Source of the DNA: Escherichia coli
Lineage (GTDB): Bacteria > Pseudomonadota > Gammaproteobacteria > Enterobacterales > Enterobacteriaceae
Assembly: GCF_041886205.1 (NCBI RefSeq)
Contig: NZ_CP169029.1
Direction: 5' to 3' (one strand)
DNA: 64,000 bases
In this document: positions 1 to 61,893 of the stretch, piece by piece
How positions within the stretch are numbered: position 1 is the first letter of the stretch
How the letters are laid out: each line of letters begins with the position of its first letter
Notes under the pieces: model-generated
Told to the model about the DNA's origin: nothing
Database searches by the model: none
What the model saw: only the letters and a program-made list of their open reading frames with translations
Made by a program: the position numbers and the translations under genes

Positions 1-132
1 CCGGCAGAGATGCCCGTTGGCGGCTACAAACACTCCGGCATTGGTCGCGAGAACGGCGTGATGACGCTCCAGAGTTACACCCAGGTGAAGTCCATCCAGG
101 TTGAGATGGCTAAATTCCAGTCCATATTCTAA
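1..132 (+). CDS. betB: Betaine aldehyde dehydrogenase, 3' end (5' end lies outside window)
   Basis: Frame 1 from position 1 translates ...[43 protein letters not shown] with stop TAA at 130-132; typical aldehyde dehydrogenase C-terminus; immediately upstream of betA as in the bet operon. Confidence 0.85.
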
Positions 133-145
133 CCAGGAGGTTTAT

Positions 146-1816
146 TTGCAATTTGACTACATCATTATTGGTGCCGGCTCAGCCGGCAACGTTCTCGCTA
201 CCCGTCTGACTGAAGATCCGAATACCTCCGTCCTGCTGCTTGAAGCGGGCGGCCCGGACTATCGCTTTGACTTCCGCACCCAGATGCCCGCAGCGCTGGC
301 GTTCCCACTACAGGGCAAACGCTACAACTGGGCCTATGAAACAGAGCCTGAACCGTTTATGAATAACCGCCGCATGGAGTGCGGACGCGGTAAAGGCCTG
401 GGTGGATCGTCGCTGATCAACGGCATGTGCTACATCCGTGGCAATGCGCTGGATCTCGATAACTGGGCGCAAGAACCCGGTCTGGAGAACTGGAGTTATC
501 TCGACTGCCTGCCCTACTACCGCAAGGCCGAGACTCGCGATGTGGGCGAGAACGACTACCACGGTGGCGATGGCCCGGTGAGCGTCACTACCTCCAAACC
601 CGGCGTCAATCCGCTGTTTGAAGCGATGATTGAAGCGGGCGTGCAGGCGGGCTACCCGCGCACGGACGATCTCAACGGTTATCAGCAGGAAGGTTTTGGT
701 CCGATGGATCGCACCGTCACGCCGCAGGGCCGTCGCGCCAGTACCGCGCGCGGTTATCTCGATCAGGCCAAATCGCGCCCTAACCTGACCATTCGTACTC
801 ACGCTATGACCGATCACATCATTTTTGACGGCAAACGCGCGGTGGGCGTCGAATGGCTGGAAGGCGACAGCACCATCCCAACCCGCGCAACGGCCAACAA
901 AGAAGTGCTGTTATGTGCAGGCGCGATTGCCTCACCGCAGATCCTGCAACGCTCCGGCGTCGGCAACGCTGAACTGCTGGCGGAGTTTGATATTCCGCTG
1001 GTGCATGAATTACCCGGCGTCGGCGAAAATCTTCAGGATCACCTGGAGATGTACCTGCAATATGAGTGCAAAGAACCGGTTTCCCTCTACCCTGCCCTGC
1101 AGTGGTGGAATCAGCCGAAAATCGGTGCGGAGTGGCTGTTTGGCGGCACCGGCGTTGGTGCCAGCAACCACTTTGAAGCAGGCGGATTTATTCGCAGCCG
1201 AGAGGAATTTGCGTGGCCGAATATTCAGTACCATTTCCTGCCAGTAGCGATTAACTATAACGGCTCGAATGCAGTGAAAGAGCACGGTTTCCAGTGCCAC
1301 GTCGGCTCAATGCGCTCGCCAAGCCGTGGGCATGTGCGGATTAAATCCCGCGACCCGCACCAGCATCCGGCGATTCTGTTTAACTACATGTCGCATGAGC
1401 AGGACTGGCAGGAGTTCCGCGACGCAATTCGCATCACCCGCGAGATCATGCATCAACCCGCGCTGGATCAGTATCGTGGCCGCGAAATCAGCCCCGGCAC
1501 GGAATGTCAGACGGATGAACAGCTCGATGAGTTCGTGCGTAATCACGCCGAAACCGCCTTCCATCCGTGCGGTACCTGCAAAATGGGTTACGACGAGATG
1601 TCCGTGGTTGACGGCGAAGGCCGCGTACACGGGTTAGAAGGCCTGCGTGTGGTGGATGCGTCGATTATGCCGCAGATTATCACCGGGAATTTGAACGCCA
1701 CGACAATTATGATTGGCGAGAAAATAGCGGATATGATTCGTGGACAGGAAGCGCTGCCGAGGAGCACGGCGGGATATTTTGTGGCAAATGGGATGCCGGT
1801 GAGAGCGAAAAAATGA
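146..1816 (+). CDS. betA: Choline dehydrogenase (GMC oxidoreductase, FAD-binding)
   Basis: TTG start at 146 preceded by AGGAGG at 135-140; product begins [15 protein letters not shown] (Rossmann GxGxxG) and is 556 aa; the track ORF 101..1816 includes upstream read-through. Confidence 0.93.
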
Positions 1817-2544
1817 GTCGTGATTTGAACTGACGCAAGTCCCTGCAAAGTTAAGCGTTACCGTCTTGAGATAGGTATACAAAGTCTCATACTTCTCTCT
1901 CAACAATCCGAAATAATCGGGTACCCGCGTTTACCGGATCAGGAAGGCATATACTATCCGGTCTGCGCTTTCTACTGCAATATTTCTAAAAGTTGCGCAA
2001 CACGCGGCAGGATAGTGCTTTTACGCAAAGAAGCACTTTCTGCCGCCCGGGAAATGCGCGCGTGCTATACGCCGTTTTACCTGAGATATGACAGAGTAAA
2101 GCCCTGTTAAAATACTCTTGTCGTCTCAGGTATAATAAGTGATTAATATCAATCATATATTTTTACAGCAAGACAACCACGTACAAACTCAGGATTAATA
2201 TGTTTTACCGATTCCCCAACATAACCCAAATCAAGCGAACTAATTTGTGCCATTTCTTTCTCTGTCAATGAGAAATCGATTTTTGATGGGCATCTGCAAT
2301 ACTCTGAAGCAGACTATAAGGAAAATTCTACTGCCCCCCTCCATTCCGCATGAACAATGAGTCTACGTTAAAACGTAACCTCAAATTAGTATGTGGATTT
2401 TGATATCACTTATGCAAAAAATTCATTAATAATGTAGGACTGAAACCTCTCTATTTTCGGGGACAACGAAGCAGACGCTACCAGTGCTTTTGCCTTCGGC
2501 CTTGCTGTTTTTGATACACTTAGGGCCCAGGGCATAACGAAAAT

Positions 2545-3189
2545 GTGCGATATGACGAAGAATTAATGGAGAATGTGATGATCAGGCAGAAGATTCTACA
2601 GCAGCTCCTGGAGTGGATTGAGTGCAATCTTGAGCACCCTATTTCAATCGAAGATATCGCACAGAAATCTGGCTACAGCAGACGCAACATCCAGCTTCTG
2701 TTCCGAAATTTCATGCATGTGCCTTTGGGAGAATACATTCGCAAACGAAGGCTTTGTCGTGCCGCCATTCTTGTCCGGCTCACCGCAAAATCTATGCTTG
2801 ATATTGCACTCTTTTTGCATTTTGATTCACAGCAGTCATTCAGCCGCGAATTTAAAAAGTTATTCGGCTGCTCTCCCCGTGAATACCGCCACCGTGATTA
2901 TTGGGATCTCGCAAATATCTTCCCTTCTTTTTTAATACGTCAACAGCAAAAGACGGAGTGTAGATTAGTCAACTTTCCTGAGACACCTATTTTTGGCAAT
3001 TCATTTAAATATGATATTGAAGTGTCGAATAAATCACCGGATGAAGAAGTCAAACTGCGACGTCATCATTTAGCCAGATGTATGAATAATTTTAAGACGG
3101 ATATCTATTTCGTCTCCACGTTTGAACCGTCAACAAAATCGGTCGATTTGCTCACGGTTGAAACTTTTGCCGGTACGGTATGCAGGTGA
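2545..3189 (+). CDS. AraC/XylS-family transcriptional regulator, 3'-truncated by IS1 (stop codon supplied by the IS1 left end)
   Basis: N-terminal HTH region (IEDIAQKSGYSRRNIQLLFRNF...SQQSFSREFKKLFGCSPREYR); the ORF ends at TGA 3187-3189, which lies inside the IS1 terminal sequence GGTGATGCTGCC starting at 3185. Possibly the ykgA-type regulator; not confirmed. Confidence 0.7.
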   Translation: MRYDEELMENVMIRQKILQQLLEWIECNLEHPISIEDIAQKSGYSRRNIQLLFRNFMHVPLGEYIRKRRLCRAAILVRLTAKSMLDIALFLHFDSQQSFSREFKKLFGCSPREYRHRDYWDLANIFPSFLIRQQQKTECRLVNFPETPIFGNSFKYDIEVSNKSPDEEVKLRRHHLARCMNNFKTDIYFVSTFEPSTKSVDLLTVETFAGTVCR

Positions 3190-3239
3190 TGCTGCCAACT
3201 TACTGATTTAGTGTATGATGGTGTTTTTGAGGTGCTCCA

Positions 3240-3515
3240 GTGGCTTCTGTTTCTATCAGCTGTCCCTCCTGTTCAGCTACTGACGGGGTGGTGCGTAACG
3301 GCAAAAGCACCGCCGGACATCAGCGCTATCTCTGCTCTCACTGCCGTAAAACATGGCAACTGCAGTTCACTTACACCGCTTCTCAACCCGGTACGCACCA
3401 GAAAATCATTGATATGGCCATGAATGGCGTTGGATGCCGGGCAACCGCCCGCATTATGGGCGTTGGCCTCAACACGATTTTCCGCCATTTAAAAAACTCA
3501 GGCCGCAGTCGGTAA
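3240..3515 (+). CDS. insA: IS1 InsA (transposition regulator/DNA-binding)
   Basis: 91 aa [43 protein letters not shown]... matches IS1 InsA. Confidence 0.92.
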
Positions 3516-3937
3516 CCTCGCGCATACAGCCGGGCAGTGACGTCATCGTCTGCGCGGAAATGGACGAACAGTGGGGCTATGTCGGGGCTAAATCGCGCCA
3601 GCGCTGGCTGTTTTACGCGTATGACAGGCTCCGGAAGACGGTTGTTGCGCACGTATTCGGTGAACGCACTATGGCGACGCTGGGGCGTCTTATGAGCCTG
3701 CTGTCACCCTTTGACGTGGTGATATGGATGACGGATGGCTGGCCGCTGTATGAATCCCGCCTGAAGGGAAAGCTGCACGTAATCAGCAAGCGATATACGC
3801 AGCGAATTGAGCGGCATAACCTGAATCTGAGACAGCACCTGGCACGGCTGGGACGGAAGTCGCTGTCGTTCTCAAAATCGGTGGAGCTGCATGACAAAGT
3901 CATCGGGCATTATCTGAACATAAAACACTATCAATAA
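3434..3937 (+). CDS. insB: IS1 InsB (transposase catalytic part, normally expressed as InsAB' by frameshifting)
   Basis: 167 aa ORF overlapping the insA 3' end in another frame; sequence ...[21 protein letters not shown]...MTDGWPLYE... typical of InsB. Confidence 0.88.
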
Positions 3938-4004
3938 GTTGGAGTCATTACCAACGATCAAATTCAAACCAGCATGAAACTTTATTAAGCGTATAACCCC
4001 ATCT

Positions 4005-4256
4005 TTATTGGCTATCTGGAGAGATTTTATGAACATATTCCAATTTCCCCTTTGGATTTAATTCAACTATTCCTGCTAGGTATAACCAGTCAAGAGATAA
4101 AACAAAAATTGATATAGACATTTCAATTTTTTTCTTTGTTTCGTAAAAAAGATCTATCAATTCAATTTCATCGAAACGTTTCAGCGTATCTATAATAAAC
4201 CCACCGTTATAATATAAGCTATCTTTAGGATGAATGTCCTTTGGTAACAACATCAT
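4005..4256 (-). CDS. Hypothetical small protein, 83 aa, overlapping the 3' end of the 326-aa gene (likely same operon)
   Basis: ORF start overlaps the upstream gene's stop by ~32 bp; same strand; same AT-rich composition; ends 53 bp from the IS1 right end. Confidence 0.45.
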   Translation of the reverse strand: MMLLPKDIHPKDSLYYNGGFIIDTLKRFDEIELIDLFYETKKKIEMSISIFVLSLDWLYLAGIVELNPKGKLEYVHKISPDSQ

Positions 4257-5205
4257 TCACTCCGTTAGGGTCCCTAAAAATTTTACAGCGTATGAACGCG
4301 TCCACTGCAAGTATACTAACACAAAGCTCCAGTTCCTCTAATGGTATTTGTGTAAAATTTGCACTTTTTCTGACCATTTCAACAGAGCTGTCAATTATTT
4401 TAAAAAATAACTCATCTCCAGTGTATTGTGTACTCAATTTTACGAAGATAGTTCTAAAGGAAGACAAAACTGAAAGGCTTGAGTTTTTACCCATCTGGTT
4501 GAACTCTGAATAAATGCGGGATACTTTTCCATGATGGATTTTGTAATCTTCAATAATATATTCAGCTGCATTCAAATTATTAAATGTAATCTTGTCAGTT
4601 ACATCGAATGGTTGCGGGAAGTCAGTAGTTTCAACATTAGAAAAATCCTCCTTAGCTAATATATTTATAACAGCAGCAATATTTGTTTCGATTAAAACAT
4701 TATCAGATTCCTCTTGTAACTCATTTTTTAGAAAACCGTGTATTTCTTTCTGTTTTGTTATGTCAAGATGTGAAATAACATTAAGTATCGATTTTACATC
4801 ATGAATATCTTGCTGCGGTATAAAAACCAAAGCATGAGGATTAGTGTAAGTTTTATTTCTTAAATCACTAGCATCTTTTGCAATTGATATAAATTTAAAC
4901 TGATGGCCTTTATATAATCTTAAGTCTTTGTTCAAGGCTGAATCAATTTTTGTTTTAGTTGCAGTTGATGAAACCTGTAATACTATCTTCCCATTCTCAT
5001 CGATAAGATCGATACCCTCAAAATTATGCTTCTCTTGATTAGTATTCTTTAGGGAATACCCAAATAATAAATTAAAGAAGTGAACATAAAAATCTTCACA
5101 ATGAAGATTATAGTTAAGAATATTTAACTTCCCTCTTAATTCAACGCTATAGCATAGCAACGTAAGCCTTTTCTCACATAAATCAAAATAAATAGATCTG
5201 TTCAC
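4225..5205 (-). CDS. Hypothetical protein, 326 aa, AT-rich accessory gene (possible phage-defence/abortive-infection-type effector; unverified)
   Basis: Long uninterrupted ORF in a visibly AT-rich block between IS1 and tRNA-Thr; no family recognised with confidence from sequence alone. Confidence 0.6.
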   Translation of the reverse strand: MNRSIYFDLCEKRLTLLCYSVELRGKLNILNYNLHCEDFYVHFFNLLFGYSLKNTNQEKHNFEGIDLIDENGKIVLQVSSTATKTKIDSALNKDLRLYKGHQFKFISIAKDASDLRNKTYTNPHALVFIPQQDIHDVKSILNVISHLDITKQKEIHGFLKNELQEESDNVLIETNIAAVINILAKEDFSNVETTDFPQPFDVTDKITFNNLNAAEYIIEDYKIHHGKVSRIYSEFNQMGKNSSLSVLSSFRTIFVKLSTQYTGDELFFKIIDSSVEMVRKSANFTQIPLEELELCVSILAVDAFIRCKIFRDPNGVNDVVTKGHSS

Positions 5206-5458
5206 ACATATTATCCTTAAACTATAAACTAATCCGATATTATGAACTTAGGTAAAGTAGAAAAACTCTTCACAGATCTTACAGCATCTACGAGCTGGTT
5301 CAAGGTATGTTGAGATGGATTGAGATGTGTAGCGTATCTTCTCATTCCAAAAAGAAACCTGCCACAATTTTGCCACACTCACAACGCGCAAAAATGCACA
5401 TTTGTGTTAAGAAAAGCAAAACAACGCAACAGTAACCAGATGATTTTATTAGAAAAAA

Positions 5459-5534
5459 TGGTGCCGATAATAGGAGTCGAACCTACGACCTTCGCATTAC
5501 GAATGCGCTGCTCTACCAACTGAGCTATATCGGC
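5459..5534 (-). tRNA. thrW: tRNA-Thr
   Basis: Reverse complement reads GCCGATATAGCTCAGTTGGTAGAGCAGCGCATTCGTAATGCGAAGGTCGTAGGTTCGACTCCTATTATCGGCACCA (cloverleaf, CGU anticodon context, 3' CCA); located next to proA as expected for thrW. Confidence 0.9.
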
Positions 5535-5648
5535 CCTGAAAGGACATGTTCACGAACGTGAATCACGGTGGACAAGGTTAAAACTAACCGGGCGATGCGT
5601 CAATGGCCTTGTGAATCAAATGGCTACTTTTGCATCACCCGGTTTTAT

Positions 5649-6902
5649 TTACGCACGAATGGTGTAATCACCAATGCCGATCCACTTGTAAGTGGTCAGT
5701 GCTTCCAGCCCCATTGGGCCACGCGCGTGGAGTTTTTGTGTGCTTACCGCCACTTCCGCACCCAGTCCAAACTGGCCGCCGTCGGTAAAACGCGTAGAGG
5801 CGTTAACATAAACAGCGGACGAATCCACTTCGTTAACAAAACGCTGGGCGTTGCGCATATCGCGGGTCAGGATCGCATCGGAGTGTTGTGTGCCGTGTTC
5901 ACGAATATGGGCGATGGCATCGTCAAGATCGCTGACGATTTTGACGTTCAAATCTAATGACAGAAACTCATCGTCATACTCTTCGGCTTTAACAGCAACC
6001 ACCTTCGCAGGGCCTGCCTGCAACTGCGCCAGTGCAGCTGCATCAGCGTGTAACGTCACGCCACTTTCCGCCATTTGTTTGCTTAATGCGGGCAGGAAGC
6101 TATCGGCGATATTTTTATTCACCAGCAACGTTTCTACCGTATTACACGTGCTCGGACGCTGAGTTTTCGCGTTGACGATTACTTTCAGGGCTTCAGCGAT
6201 CTCTGCACTTTCATCAACATAAATATGGCATACGCCTATACCACCAGTGATCACCGGGATTGTCGACTGCTCGCGGCACAGTTTATGCAAACCAGCTCCA
6301 CCACGCGGGATCAGCATGTCGATGTATTTATCCATACGCAGCATTTCACTGACCAGCGCACGGTCAGGATTATCAATCGCCTGCACGGCACCCGCCGGTA
6401 AGCCACAGGATTTCAGGGCGTCCTGAATCACCGCCACCGTTGCCGCGTTAGTGCGACAGGTTTCTTTGCCACCACGCAGGATCACCACGTTACCGGTTTT
6501 CAGGCACAGGGAAGCGACATCAACCGTCACATTCGGACGCGCTTCATAAATCACGCCAATCACCCCCAGCGGCACGCGACGGCGCTCCAGACGCAGGCCA
6601 CTGTCCAGTACGCCGCCATCGATTACCTGCCCCACCGGATCGGCGAGGTTGCACACCTGACGTACATCGTCGGCAATGCCTTTCAGCCGTGCGGGCGTCA
6701 GTGCCAGACGGTCAAGCATCGCTTCGCTAAGGCCATTGGCTCGCGCGTCAGCAACATCCTGGGCGTTAGCGTTGAGGATGATTTCGCTTTGTGCTTCCAG
6801 TTCATCGGCGATTTTTTCCAGCACGCGATTTTTTTCGCGGCTGGAGAGTTGCGCTAATTTATACGAGGCTTGCTTCGCGGCAATGCCCATTTGTTCCAGC
6901 AT
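5649..6902 (-). CDS. proA: Gamma-glutamyl phosphate reductase
   Basis: 417 aa [37 protein letters not shown]...; full-length aldehyde-dehydrogenase fold; directly downstream of proB. Confidence 0.95.
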
Positions 6903-6913
6903 CAGCCTGCTCC

Positions 6914-8017
6914 TTAACGGGTAATCATGTCATCACGGTGAACGGCAACCGGGCCGTATTCATATCCCAGTATTGCATCAATTTCTTGCGAGTGGTGTCC
7001 GGCAATACGGCGTAATGCATCGCTGTTGTAACGACTGACGCCGTGGGCGATATCGCGGCCTTCGAGGTTGCAAATGCGGATGACTTCACCACGCGAGAAA
7101 TTGCCAGTCACGCTTTTAATGCCTTTCGGCAACAGGGAGCTGCCGCGTTCAAGAATGGCGGCGGTTGCCCCTTCATCTACCGTGATTTCACCCGCAGGCG
7201 GCGCACCGAAAATCCAGCGTTTACGGTTTTCAAGCGGAGTCGCCTGGGCATGGAACAGCGTACCGACGGAAATGCCTTCCATCACATCACCAATGACGCC
7301 CGGCTTGCTGCCCGCGGCAATAATGGTGTCGATACCCGCACGGCAAGCCACGTCCGCGGCCTGCAATTTGGTACTCATGCCGCCAGTTCCGAGGCCTGAA
7401 ACGCTGTCACCGGCAATCGCGCGCAGTGCGTCATCAATGCCGTAAACATCTTTAATCAGTTCTGCCTGCGGATTGCTGCGCGGATCAGCGGTGTACAAAC
7501 CTTTTTGATCGGTCAGCAGCAACAGTTTATCGGCACCCGCCAGAATCGCCGCCAGCGCAGAAAGGTTATCGTTATCACCGACCTTAATCTCTGCCGTAGC
7601 GACAGCATCGTTCTCATTGATTACCGGAACGATATTGTTATCGAGCAACGCACGCAGGGTGTCGCGGGCGTTCAGGAAGCGTTCACGGTCTTCCATATCA
7701 GCACGAGTCAGCAGCATTTGCCCGACGTGAATGCCATAAATCGAAAACAGCTGTTCCCACAGTTGAATCAGTCGACTCTGCCCTACCGCCGCCAGCAGTT
7801 GTTTCGAGGCGATAGTCGCTGGCAGTTCCGGGTAACCCAGGTGCTCACGTCCGGCGGCGATCGCGCCCGACGTCACAATAACAATCCGATGCCCGGCGGC
7901 ATGTAACTGCGCGCACTGGCGAACAAGTTCAACGATATGGGCACGGTTCAGACGGCGCGATCCGCCTGTTAGCACACTGGTGCCGAGTTTTACCACCAGC
8001 GTCTGGCTGTCACTCAT
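6914..8017 (-). CDS. proB: Glutamate 5-kinase
   Basis: Product begins [19 protein letters not shown] (internal Met of track ORF 6914..8104); amino-acid kinase domain plus C-terminal PUA-like region; 367 aa. Confidence 0.95.
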
Positions 8018-8205
8018 GATTCTCTGCCATTCAATTTTAGGAAAAATGATATCAAACGAACGTTTTAGCAGGACTGTCGTCGGTTGCCAACCATCTGCGA
8101 GCAAAGCATGGCGTTTTGTTGCGCGGGATCAGCAAGCGTAGCGGCAGTTGTTTACGCTTTCATTACAGATTTAATAAATTACCACATTTTAAGAATATTA
8201 TTAAT

Positions 8206-8232
8206 CTGTAATATATCTTTAACAATCTCAGG
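8206..8232 (+). promoter_or_regulatory. Putative PhoB-binding site (Pho box) in the phoE promoter
   Basis: CTGTAATATATCTTTAACAATCTCAGG about 75-100 bp upstream of the phoE start; CTGTAAT/CTTTAAC-type repeats resemble Pho boxes. Call by resemblance only. Confidence 0.4.
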
Positions 8233-8304
8233 TTAAAAACTTTCCTGTTTTCAACGGGACTCCCCCGCTGAATATTCGCGCGTTAATTAAAATCAGGAAT
8301 GAAG

Positions 8305-9360
8305 ATGAAAAAGAGCACTCTGGCATTAGTGGTGATGGGCATTGTGGCATCTGCATCCGTACAGGCCGCAGAAATATATAACAAAGACGGTAATAAACTG
8401 GATGTCTATGGCAAAGTTAAAGCCATGCATTATATGAGTGATAACGACAGTAAAGATGGCGACCAGAGTTATATCCGTTTTGGTTTTAAAGGCGAAACAC
8501 AAATTAACGATCAACTGACTGGTTATGGTCGTTGGGAAGCAGAGTTTGCCGGTAATAAAGCAGAGAGTGATACTGCACAGCAAAAAACGCGTCTCGCTTT
8601 TGCCGGGTTGAAATATAAAGATTTGGGTTCTTTCGACTATGGCCGTAACCTGGGCGCGTTGTATGACGTGGAAGCCTGGACCGATATGTTCCCGGAATTT
8701 GGTGGCGACTCCTCGGCGCAGACCGACAACTTTATGACCAAACGCGCCAGCGGTCTGGCGACGTATCGGAACACCGACTTCTTCGGCGTTATCGATGGCC
8801 TGAACTTAACCCTGCAATATCAAGGGAAAAACGAAAACCGCGACGTTAAAAAGCAAAACGGCGATGGCTTCGGCACGTCATTGACATATGACTTTGGCGG
8901 CAGCGATTTCGCCATTAGTGGGGCCTATACCAACTCAGATCGCACCAACGAGCAGAACCTGCAAAGCCGTGGCACAGGCAAGCGTGCAGAAGCATGGGCT
9001 ACAGGTCTGAAATACGATGCCAATAATATTTATCTGGCAACTTTTTATTCTGAAACACGCAAAATGACGCCAATAACTGGCGGCTTTGCCAATAAGACAC
9101 AGAACTTTGAAGCGGTCGCTCAATACCAGTTTGACTTTGGTCTGCGTCCATCGCTGGGTTATGTCTTATCGAAAGGGAAAGATATTGAAGGTATCGGTGA
9201 TGAAGATCTGGTCAATTATATCGATGTCGGGGCTACATATTATTTCAACAAAAATATGTCAGCGTTTGTTGATTATAAAATCAACCAACTGGATAGCGAT
9301 AACAAATTGAATATTAATAATGATGATATTGTCGCGGTTGGCATGACCTATCAGTTTTAA
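8305..9360 (+). CDS. phoE: Phosphate-starvation-inducible outer membrane porin PhoE
   Basis: [21 protein letters not shown] signal peptide followed by [16 protein letters not shown]... and C-terminal ...GMTYQF (terminal Phe typical of OMP beta-barrels); 351 aa. Confidence 0.95.
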
Positions 9361-9368
9361 TGATTATT

Positions 9369-9390
9369 GCCGGATGTGATGCATCCGGCA
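9369..9390. terminator. Putative bidirectional rho-independent terminator between convergent phoE and crl
   Basis: Inverted repeat GCCGGATG-tgat-gCATCCGGC immediately after the phoE stop. Confidence 0.5.
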
Positions 9391-9398
9391 CATTTCAC

Positions 9399-9857
<459 letters not shown>

Positions 9858-61816: not shown

Positions 61817-61893
61817 TGGCGGAACGGACGGGACTCGAACCCGCGACCCCCTGCGTGACAGGCAGGTATTCTAACCGACTGAACTACCGCTCC
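61817..61893 (-). tRNA. aspV: tRNA-Asp
   Basis: Reverse complement reads GGAGCGGTAGTTCAGTCGGTTAGAATACCTGCCTGTCACGCAGGGGGTCGCGGGTTCGAGTCCCGTCCGTTCCGCCA (GUC anticodon); located next to dnaQ. Confidence 0.92.

Follow-up and report, generated by a model that had tools for sequence, protein, structure and literature searches.

How did a single IS1 element come to stand between the bet region and the thrW island of an Escherichia coli chromosome, flanked by remnants of two different genes? In the 64-kb stretch of DNA analyzed here (the window), the interval 3176-3961 consists of a complete IS1 with 9 bp on either side. The first-pass annotation had proposed that this IS1 lacks a target-site duplication, that it truncates an AraC-family regulator, and that it results from an adjacent deletion or from recombination between two IS1 copies rather than from a simple insertion. 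The element was also offered as a possible reason why bet and the thrW island are joined in this strain. The features discussed below are collected in Table 1.

Table 1. Features of the IS1 junction and its surroundings, in window coordinates.
Feature	Position	Strand	Support
betA (choline dehydrogenase), last gene of the bet cluster	146..1816	+	Collinear with PT62 betA, 3847-5517 in L001
Aldo/keto reductase pseudogene remnant (akr')	2149..2277	-	Partial annotation; collinear in PT62, AZ147 and DH1
Truncated ykgA-like AraC-family regulator, 203 aa	2578..3189	+	Pfam and translation
Left-flank 9-mer CGGTATGCA, IS1 target	3176..3184	.	Same position hit in two other strains
Complete IS1 (IS1B-like)	3185..3952	+	Both ends, frames and frameshift motif mapped in the window
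DUF2326 ABC-3C ATPase gene remnant, 28 codons	3953..4036	-	99.9% identity to the AZ147 locus
ABC-3C middle component MC6, intact	4005..4256	-	Pfam MC6, E=1.2e-23; RefSeq annotation of homologous loci agrees
ABC-3C SMEK_N + CTD10 protein, intact	4225..5205	-	Pfam SMEK_N, E=2.6e-38; CTD10, E=1.5e-32
thrW, tRNA-Thr(CGU)	5459..5534	-	ARAGORN; island anchor, followed by proA and proB

An intact IS1 between unmatched flanks

The element is exactly 768 bp long. Its left inverted repeat, GGTGATGCTGCCAACTTACTGAT (3185-3207), and its right inverted repeat, GGTAATGACTCCAACTTATTGAT (3930-3952, minus strand), are each found at a single place in the 64-kb window, where no match to either is expected by chance, and the two agree at 18 of 23 positions. 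This is the terminal structure of the IS1 family, whose members measure about 768 bp, have imperfect repeats of about 23 bp and start with GGT(G/A)ATG. Both insA (3240-3515, InsA of 91 aa) and the insB frame (3434-3937, 167 aa) are intact and, as in the IS1 family, the insA and insB' frames are joined by a -1 frameshift at the A6C motif TTAAAAAAC, which is itself intact at position 3489. Judging by these frames, the copy looks transposition-competent. Compared with the annotated IS1B of strain 100416 (L005), it is 99.5% identical, with four scattered differences.

The 9-mers that abut the two ends, CGGTATGCA on the left and AACGATCAA (3953-3961) on the right, are identical at three of nine positions. 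With the ends mapped exactly, no direct repeat of 8-9 bp was found, so the mismatch described in the first-pass annotation stands. A duplication of another length, or one that has decayed, was considered as well and is ruled out by the flanks: the two 25-bp stretches next to IS1 share no direct word of at least five bases. A target duplication marks a simple insertion and not membership of the IS1 family; its absence is characteristic of a secondary rearrangement, and the element still belongs to the family.

Two genes cut at the IS1 ends

On the left, the regulator reading frame (listed as 2545..3189) has an ATG at 2578 in frame with a TGA at 3187-3189, inside the left end of IS1. The last codon and the stop are thus supplied by the element, and the translation ends in FAGTVCR. 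The intact regulator in PT62 and wlxctx60 has 285 aa (WP_040062570), against 203 aa here, and the loss of the 3' end that had been read from the position of the TGA is confirmed by the length of these homologues. In the 285-aa protein of PT62, Pfam places HTH_18 at residues 27-106 and a GyrI-like domain at residues 127-283. Only HTH models match the window product; its GyrI-like domain is interrupted at about residue 202 of 283 and falls below detection. The gene is the ykgA homologue, here without the complete C-terminal GyrI-like domain that accompanies the N-terminal double HTH (HTH_18/HTH_AraC) in AraC/XylS regulators of the ykgA type, and it is a pseudogene of that family. The DNA leading up to the element (window 1-3184) matches PT62 (L001, 3702-6885) at 99.9% identity and wlxctx60 at 99.97%.

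The right flank of IS1 is a disrupted gene as well, a point absent from the first-pass annotation. The first 84 nt of a DUF2326 gene (28 of 581 codons) remain and run into IS1 as a fusion reading frame of 54 aa (3872-4036). Window positions 3952-5504 are 99.9% identical to positions 8000-9552 of the AZ147 locus (L002), where the 581-aa DUF2326 gene is intact at 6339-8084 on the minus strand. An ABC-3C island homologous to this segment at 99.9% identity is present in 36-37 of the 5,426 complete E. coli genomes searched. These genomes carry a three-gene operon on the minus strand, encoding the SMEK_N + CTD10 protein, MC6 and the 581-aa DUF2326 ATPase. The SMEK_N + CTD10 gene leads the operon, and transcription runs from the thrW side toward IS1. 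Of the three genes that make up an ABC-3C system (ATPase, middle component and CTD protein), the window retains the ATPase as 28 codons, and the defence system is incomplete here. The DUF2326 position carries only the annotation 'hypothetical protein' in MB56 and FLI21.

Strain A23 presents the undisturbed order, in which thrW is followed by the ABC-3C protein, MC6, DUF2326, HigA, traJ/trbJ/trbL and several integrases; the intact thrW island measures about 18 kb there. In AZ147, homology to the window ends 46 bp inside thrW, and in USMARC-49610 it ends 17 bp inside; both strains have other elements integrated between thrW and the ABC-3C island. The far end of the A23 island (L008, 3228-3339) carries a 112-nt 'tRNA-Ser' beside a site-specific integrase; this length is atypical of tRNAs, and the feature may be att-related or mis-called.

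Extent of the missing DNA

When both flanks are aligned to Ecol_AZ147, in which both genes are whole, the break points are collinear, with 39,295 bp between them. The flanking genes are cut exactly at the IS ends (203 of 285 aa on one side, 28 of 581 codons on the other), and flanks that are collinear and distant in this way are what an IS deletion scar leaves. The AZ147 interval contains the ykgA 3' end, fdeC, ykgR, ykgM/O, ykgL, ecpR-E, ykgJ, yagU and paoABCD, together with a LysR remnant and an integrase; most of the thrW island lies in it as well.

The nearest relatives, wlxctx60 and 6EVA, have 12.1 kb between thrW and the ykgA break point, and the ABC-3C island is absent. Between the two points lie fdeC and ykgR, a Mn-catalase/ferritin-like cluster, and genes for a LysR regulator and an SDR. 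To the right of thrW, wlxctx60 is 100.0% identical to the window over 22.5 kb. As a side observation, positions 2714-9568 of the wlxctx60 locus (L007) encode a Mn-catalase / ferritin-like / YciE-F / con-10 stress cluster, and the ecp and pao operons are absent; the wlxctx60/6EVA lineage is without genes that are usually counted as E. coli core-like, for example those of the Ecp pilus.

Judged from these reference genomes, about 29-39 kb has been lost. For the window's own rare lineage we estimate a loss of about 29 kb, from the 12.1-kb interval of wlxctx60 and 6EVA taken together with an A23-like island of about 18 kb assumed in the ancestor, the content of which we infer. A proxy for the state before the deletion was sought among the 5,426 genomes; the 6 with the betA-ykgA arrangement and the 37 with the island do not overlap.

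The bet-ykgA adjacency

In the lineage of the window, betA is followed directly by the akr' remnant and ykgA. This direct arrangement is found in 6 of the 5,426 genomes, namely wlxctx60, 6EVA, PT62, LP5-1, GF4-3 and MB53. In K-12 and AZ147, ykgH-ykgEFG(lutABC)-rclRABC lies between betA and ykgA. These genes are absent from the gap at window 1817-2578, and homology with the rcl-bearing genomes picks up again at window 2102. In the three of the six genomes that were inspected (wlxctx60, PT62 and 6EVA), ykgA continues uninterrupted past the break point of the window. Because relatives that share the adjacency have ykgA intact at the break point, the adjacency is a lineage trait independent of IS1. 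The proposal that IS1 joined bet to the thrW island must therefore be divided: the element explains the join between ykgA and the thrW island, and it does not explain why bet lies next to ykgA, as this is also seen in relatives with an intact ykgA.

Search for the junction and for related IS1 insertions

A query with the whole junction, at a coverage of at least 80%, matched none of the 5,426 complete E. coli genomes, and junction-specific 130-nt queries detected neither a left junction in the same orientation nor a right junction among them. Scans of JGI metagenome contigs with the exact pattern of each junction gave no hit, and neither did a scan of GTDB species-representative genomes with the right-junction pattern. 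Possible intermediates were also sought in the 5,426 genomes, and there was no IS1 in the same orientation with duplications at the ykgA site and none at the DUF2326 site. Across the 5,426 genomes, the JGI contigs and the GTDB representatives, the searches thus returned no ancestral intermediate with the IS at one junction, as adjacent deletion would require, or at both, as recombination would. The lack of an intermediate bears on the sub-mechanism, not on the deletion itself.

The ykgA position itself has been hit by IS1 in other strains. Strain 100416 (Gambia, NZ_CM128593, L005) and strain ETEC1731 (Belgium, NZ_CP122816, L006) are unrelated strains, and both carry an IS1 at the identical 9-bp position. 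In both, the element is in the opposite orientation to that of the window, is bordered by a perfect 9-bp duplication, CGGTATGTG, and is followed by the remaining part of ykgA. The two copies of the duplication, an allelic form of CGGTATGCA, are found at 6092-6100 and 6869-6877 in L005 and at the same coordinates in L006. The IS1 variants of 100416 and ETEC1731 are 99.5% and 91% identical to the window copy, and because the variants differ, the two insertions are independent. The 9-bp position in ykgA is a genuine IS1 hot spot, with three independent IS1 events including the one in the window. The hot-spot target CGGTATG resembles the IS1 terminus GGT(A/G)ATG.

IS1 is also found at other points of the region. 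PT62 has an IS1 91 bp downstream of ykgA (L001, 7228-7996), where it is joined to afuB'-fbpC-mmuMP, and in USMARC-49610 a copy lies 68 bp further into DUF2326 than that of the window (L003, 9001-9900), joined to polysaccharide-synthesis genes. AZ147 has two IS1 copies within the thrW-ykgA interval. The junctions in PT62 and USMARC-49610 are independent deletion or rearrangement scars at the edges of the same region.

Origin of the scar

The suggestion that this IS1 is not a simple insertion, but the product of an adjacent deletion or of recombination between two IS1 copies, is borne out by the two cut genes, whose break points lie 39,295 bp apart in AZ147. We regard an IS1-associated deletion, by either of these routes, as very likely. 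An IS1 insertion followed by an IS1-promoted adjacent deletion has, in our judgment, an even chance of being the route taken. The comparison with reference genomes shows a deletion centred on one IS1; the order of the steps and their dependence on transposase we infer.

In this sequence of events, IS1 would first arrive by ordinary transposition, with the hot spot CGGTATGCA in ykgA slightly favoured as the site over the mirror case, in which the element entered the DUF2326 gene. A free IS1 end would then attack the same chromosome in an intramolecular, transposase-dependent adjacent deletion. The intervening DNA would depart as a circle with a second IS1 copy, and the segment from ykgA codon 203 to DUF2326 codon 28 would be lost, leaving a single intact IS1. 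Such an element would have one old and one new flank, so that a matching duplication would not be expected. Use of the hot spot as a pointer to the primary insertion site was considered and dropped, since an IS1 in DUF2326 that attacked its own chromosome would also be drawn to that target.

Both truncated genes retain their native orientation. The left junction has the register of real IS1 transposition, because IS1 has used this 9-bp target twice more, with perfect duplications and in two variants. IS1 is known classically for promoting deletions next to itself, as reportedly described by Reif and Saedler in 1975. The precedent for adjacent deletion from the LTEE concerns IS150 and not IS1, which counts against this route. 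Insertion followed by adjacent deletion is nevertheless favoured, because two events suffice, compared with three for recombination between two copies.

Homologous (RecA-type) recombination between direct IS1 copies, one in the ykgA hot spot and one in DUF2326, is a plausible alternative to which we give somewhat less than even weight. Such an exchange could have involved two copies on the same chromosome, or a resident copy and one carried by incoming DNA, and would have deleted or replaced the interval. Its product would be as seen here, i.e., one IS1 with half of a different duplication on each flank and both genes cut. Adjacent deletion and recombination between direct copies give an identical product, and the sequence does not separate the two routes. 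IS1 is dense around the region (two copies in AZ147, one in PT62 and one in USMARC-49610), and the nearest relatives lack the 1.5-kb ABC-3C remnant while the core on both sides is 99.9-100% identical, which would fit imported DNA. Missing duplications are usually due to adjacent deletion or to inter-IS recombination, the latter being a frequent cause (PMC11708052). However, recombination between two copies requires two insertions and an exchange, and neither parental insertion was found in the required orientation in the 5,426 genomes, the metagenome contigs or the GTDB representatives. A mosaic of IS1 variants was also sought as a sign of recombination, and no obvious one was seen; the four scattered differences from IS1B make this a weak test.

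An assembly artefact, in which two real IS1 copies with their own duplications were collapsed and the wrong flanks joined, is very improbable. At 768 bp, IS1 exceeds short reads, which is a classic cause of misjoins, and the junction is present in no other genome searched. Nevertheless, the window is contiguous over 64 kb and collinear with relatives on both sides, and comparable strain-specific IS junctions occur at this locus in the finished genomes of PT62 and USMARC-49610 (IS1) and K-12 (IS3). A collapse would, moreover, leave about 30 kb to be placed elsewhere.

We give hardly any weight to a one-step event, in which IS1 entered a double-strand break without duplication while the deletion formed. 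Capture of an IS at a deletion break without duplication has been proposed for IS5 and IS481, and the window resembles those cases in that there is no duplication and the IS lies at the centre of a large deletion (PMC11708052). However, the left junction matches to the base a 9-bp IS1 target of two other strains, and at such a base-exact known target a site chosen by transposase is to be expected, not a random break. The break-capture proposal is itself unproven, and we know of no IS1 precedent for it. Finally, a simple IS1 insertion with a duplication decayed by point mutation is supported by nothing other than an intact IS1 and is refuted, as the flanks come from different genes that are 12-39 kb apart in reference genomes and are identical at three of nine positions even though they are 99.9% identical to their homologues.

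An insertion of IS1 followed by an adjacent deletion thus remains our preferred reading, and the locus is an ordinary and well-understood IS-mediated deletion for which no new mechanism is needed. It is improbable that it represents either a single event without duplication, as for IS5/IS481, or a ykgA 9-mer that, as a sequence-specific IS1 hot spot, seeds repeated, independent erosion of the whole thrW-ykgA interval across E. coli.

Consequences for the strain

One scar disables two functions in this strain, the ykgA-like regulator and the ABC-3C defence. The regulator keeps its DNA-binding domain and loses approximately the C-terminal half of the GyrI-like ligand-binding domain, and the defence operon is left without its ATPase. 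In the reference genomes, the missing DNA of about 29-39 kb encodes the FdeC adhesin. Whether the Ecp pilus and the Pao aldehyde oxidoreductase were lost too, along with most of the thrW island, depends on the ancestor.

The thrW-ykgA interval is a hot zone for IS-driven gene loss, with scars of their own in K-12, PT62 and USMARC-49610, and the window adds one more data point both for this erosion and for the 9-bp site in ykgA. The instance was previously uncatalogued and the phenomenon is textbook; the value of the observation is descriptive.

Further downstream in the window, the T6SS/Rhs cluster (tssH, vgrG, tssF, tssC and Rhs core, approximately 27000-51000) is 92.6% identical to its best full-length E. 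coli matches, and the near-perfect identity to wlxctx60 ends at about window 27919. The T6SS allele, upstream of aspV (tRNA-Asp, 61817-61893), would accordingly seem divergent or recombined.

Comparison with known IS scars

The IS1 insertions of 100416 and ETEC1731 share both the gene and the 9-bp target with the window. They are plain insertions with nothing deleted, and the GyrI-like 3' fragment follows directly after the element, whereas the window carries a deletion. K-12 DH1 (NC_017625, L009 4281-7060) has the arrangement ykgA'-IS3-eaeH'(fdeC'), which resembles the window in being an IS-associated scar with truncated genes on both sides; the regulator gene, a pseudogene in K-12, is cut about 50 bp further 3' than in the window. 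It differs in that the element is IS3 and the deletion is far smaller, comprising the ykgA 3' end and the end of fdeC, with the thrW island and the ecp/pao region still in place.

PT62 and USMARC-49610 resemble the window in that one IS1 links sequences that usually lie far apart, again at the margins of this variable region, and in the latter strain the same ABC-3C ATPase gene is cut, 68 bp deeper. The break points and the partners are different, however; ykgA is intact in PT62, and the IS1 of USMARC-49610 is only 91% identical to that of the window.

Outside this region, the deletions of the Lenski LTEE resemble the window in that one IS lies at the centre of a large deletion and the duplication is absent (PMC11708052). 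The LTEE cases come from a laboratory lineage, with IS150 as the element and intermediates resolved in time, whereas the window records a natural event with IS1 for which no intermediate is available. The explanation given for the LTEE deletions without duplication was an adjacent deletion after insertion, or else recombination between IS copies (PMC11708052).
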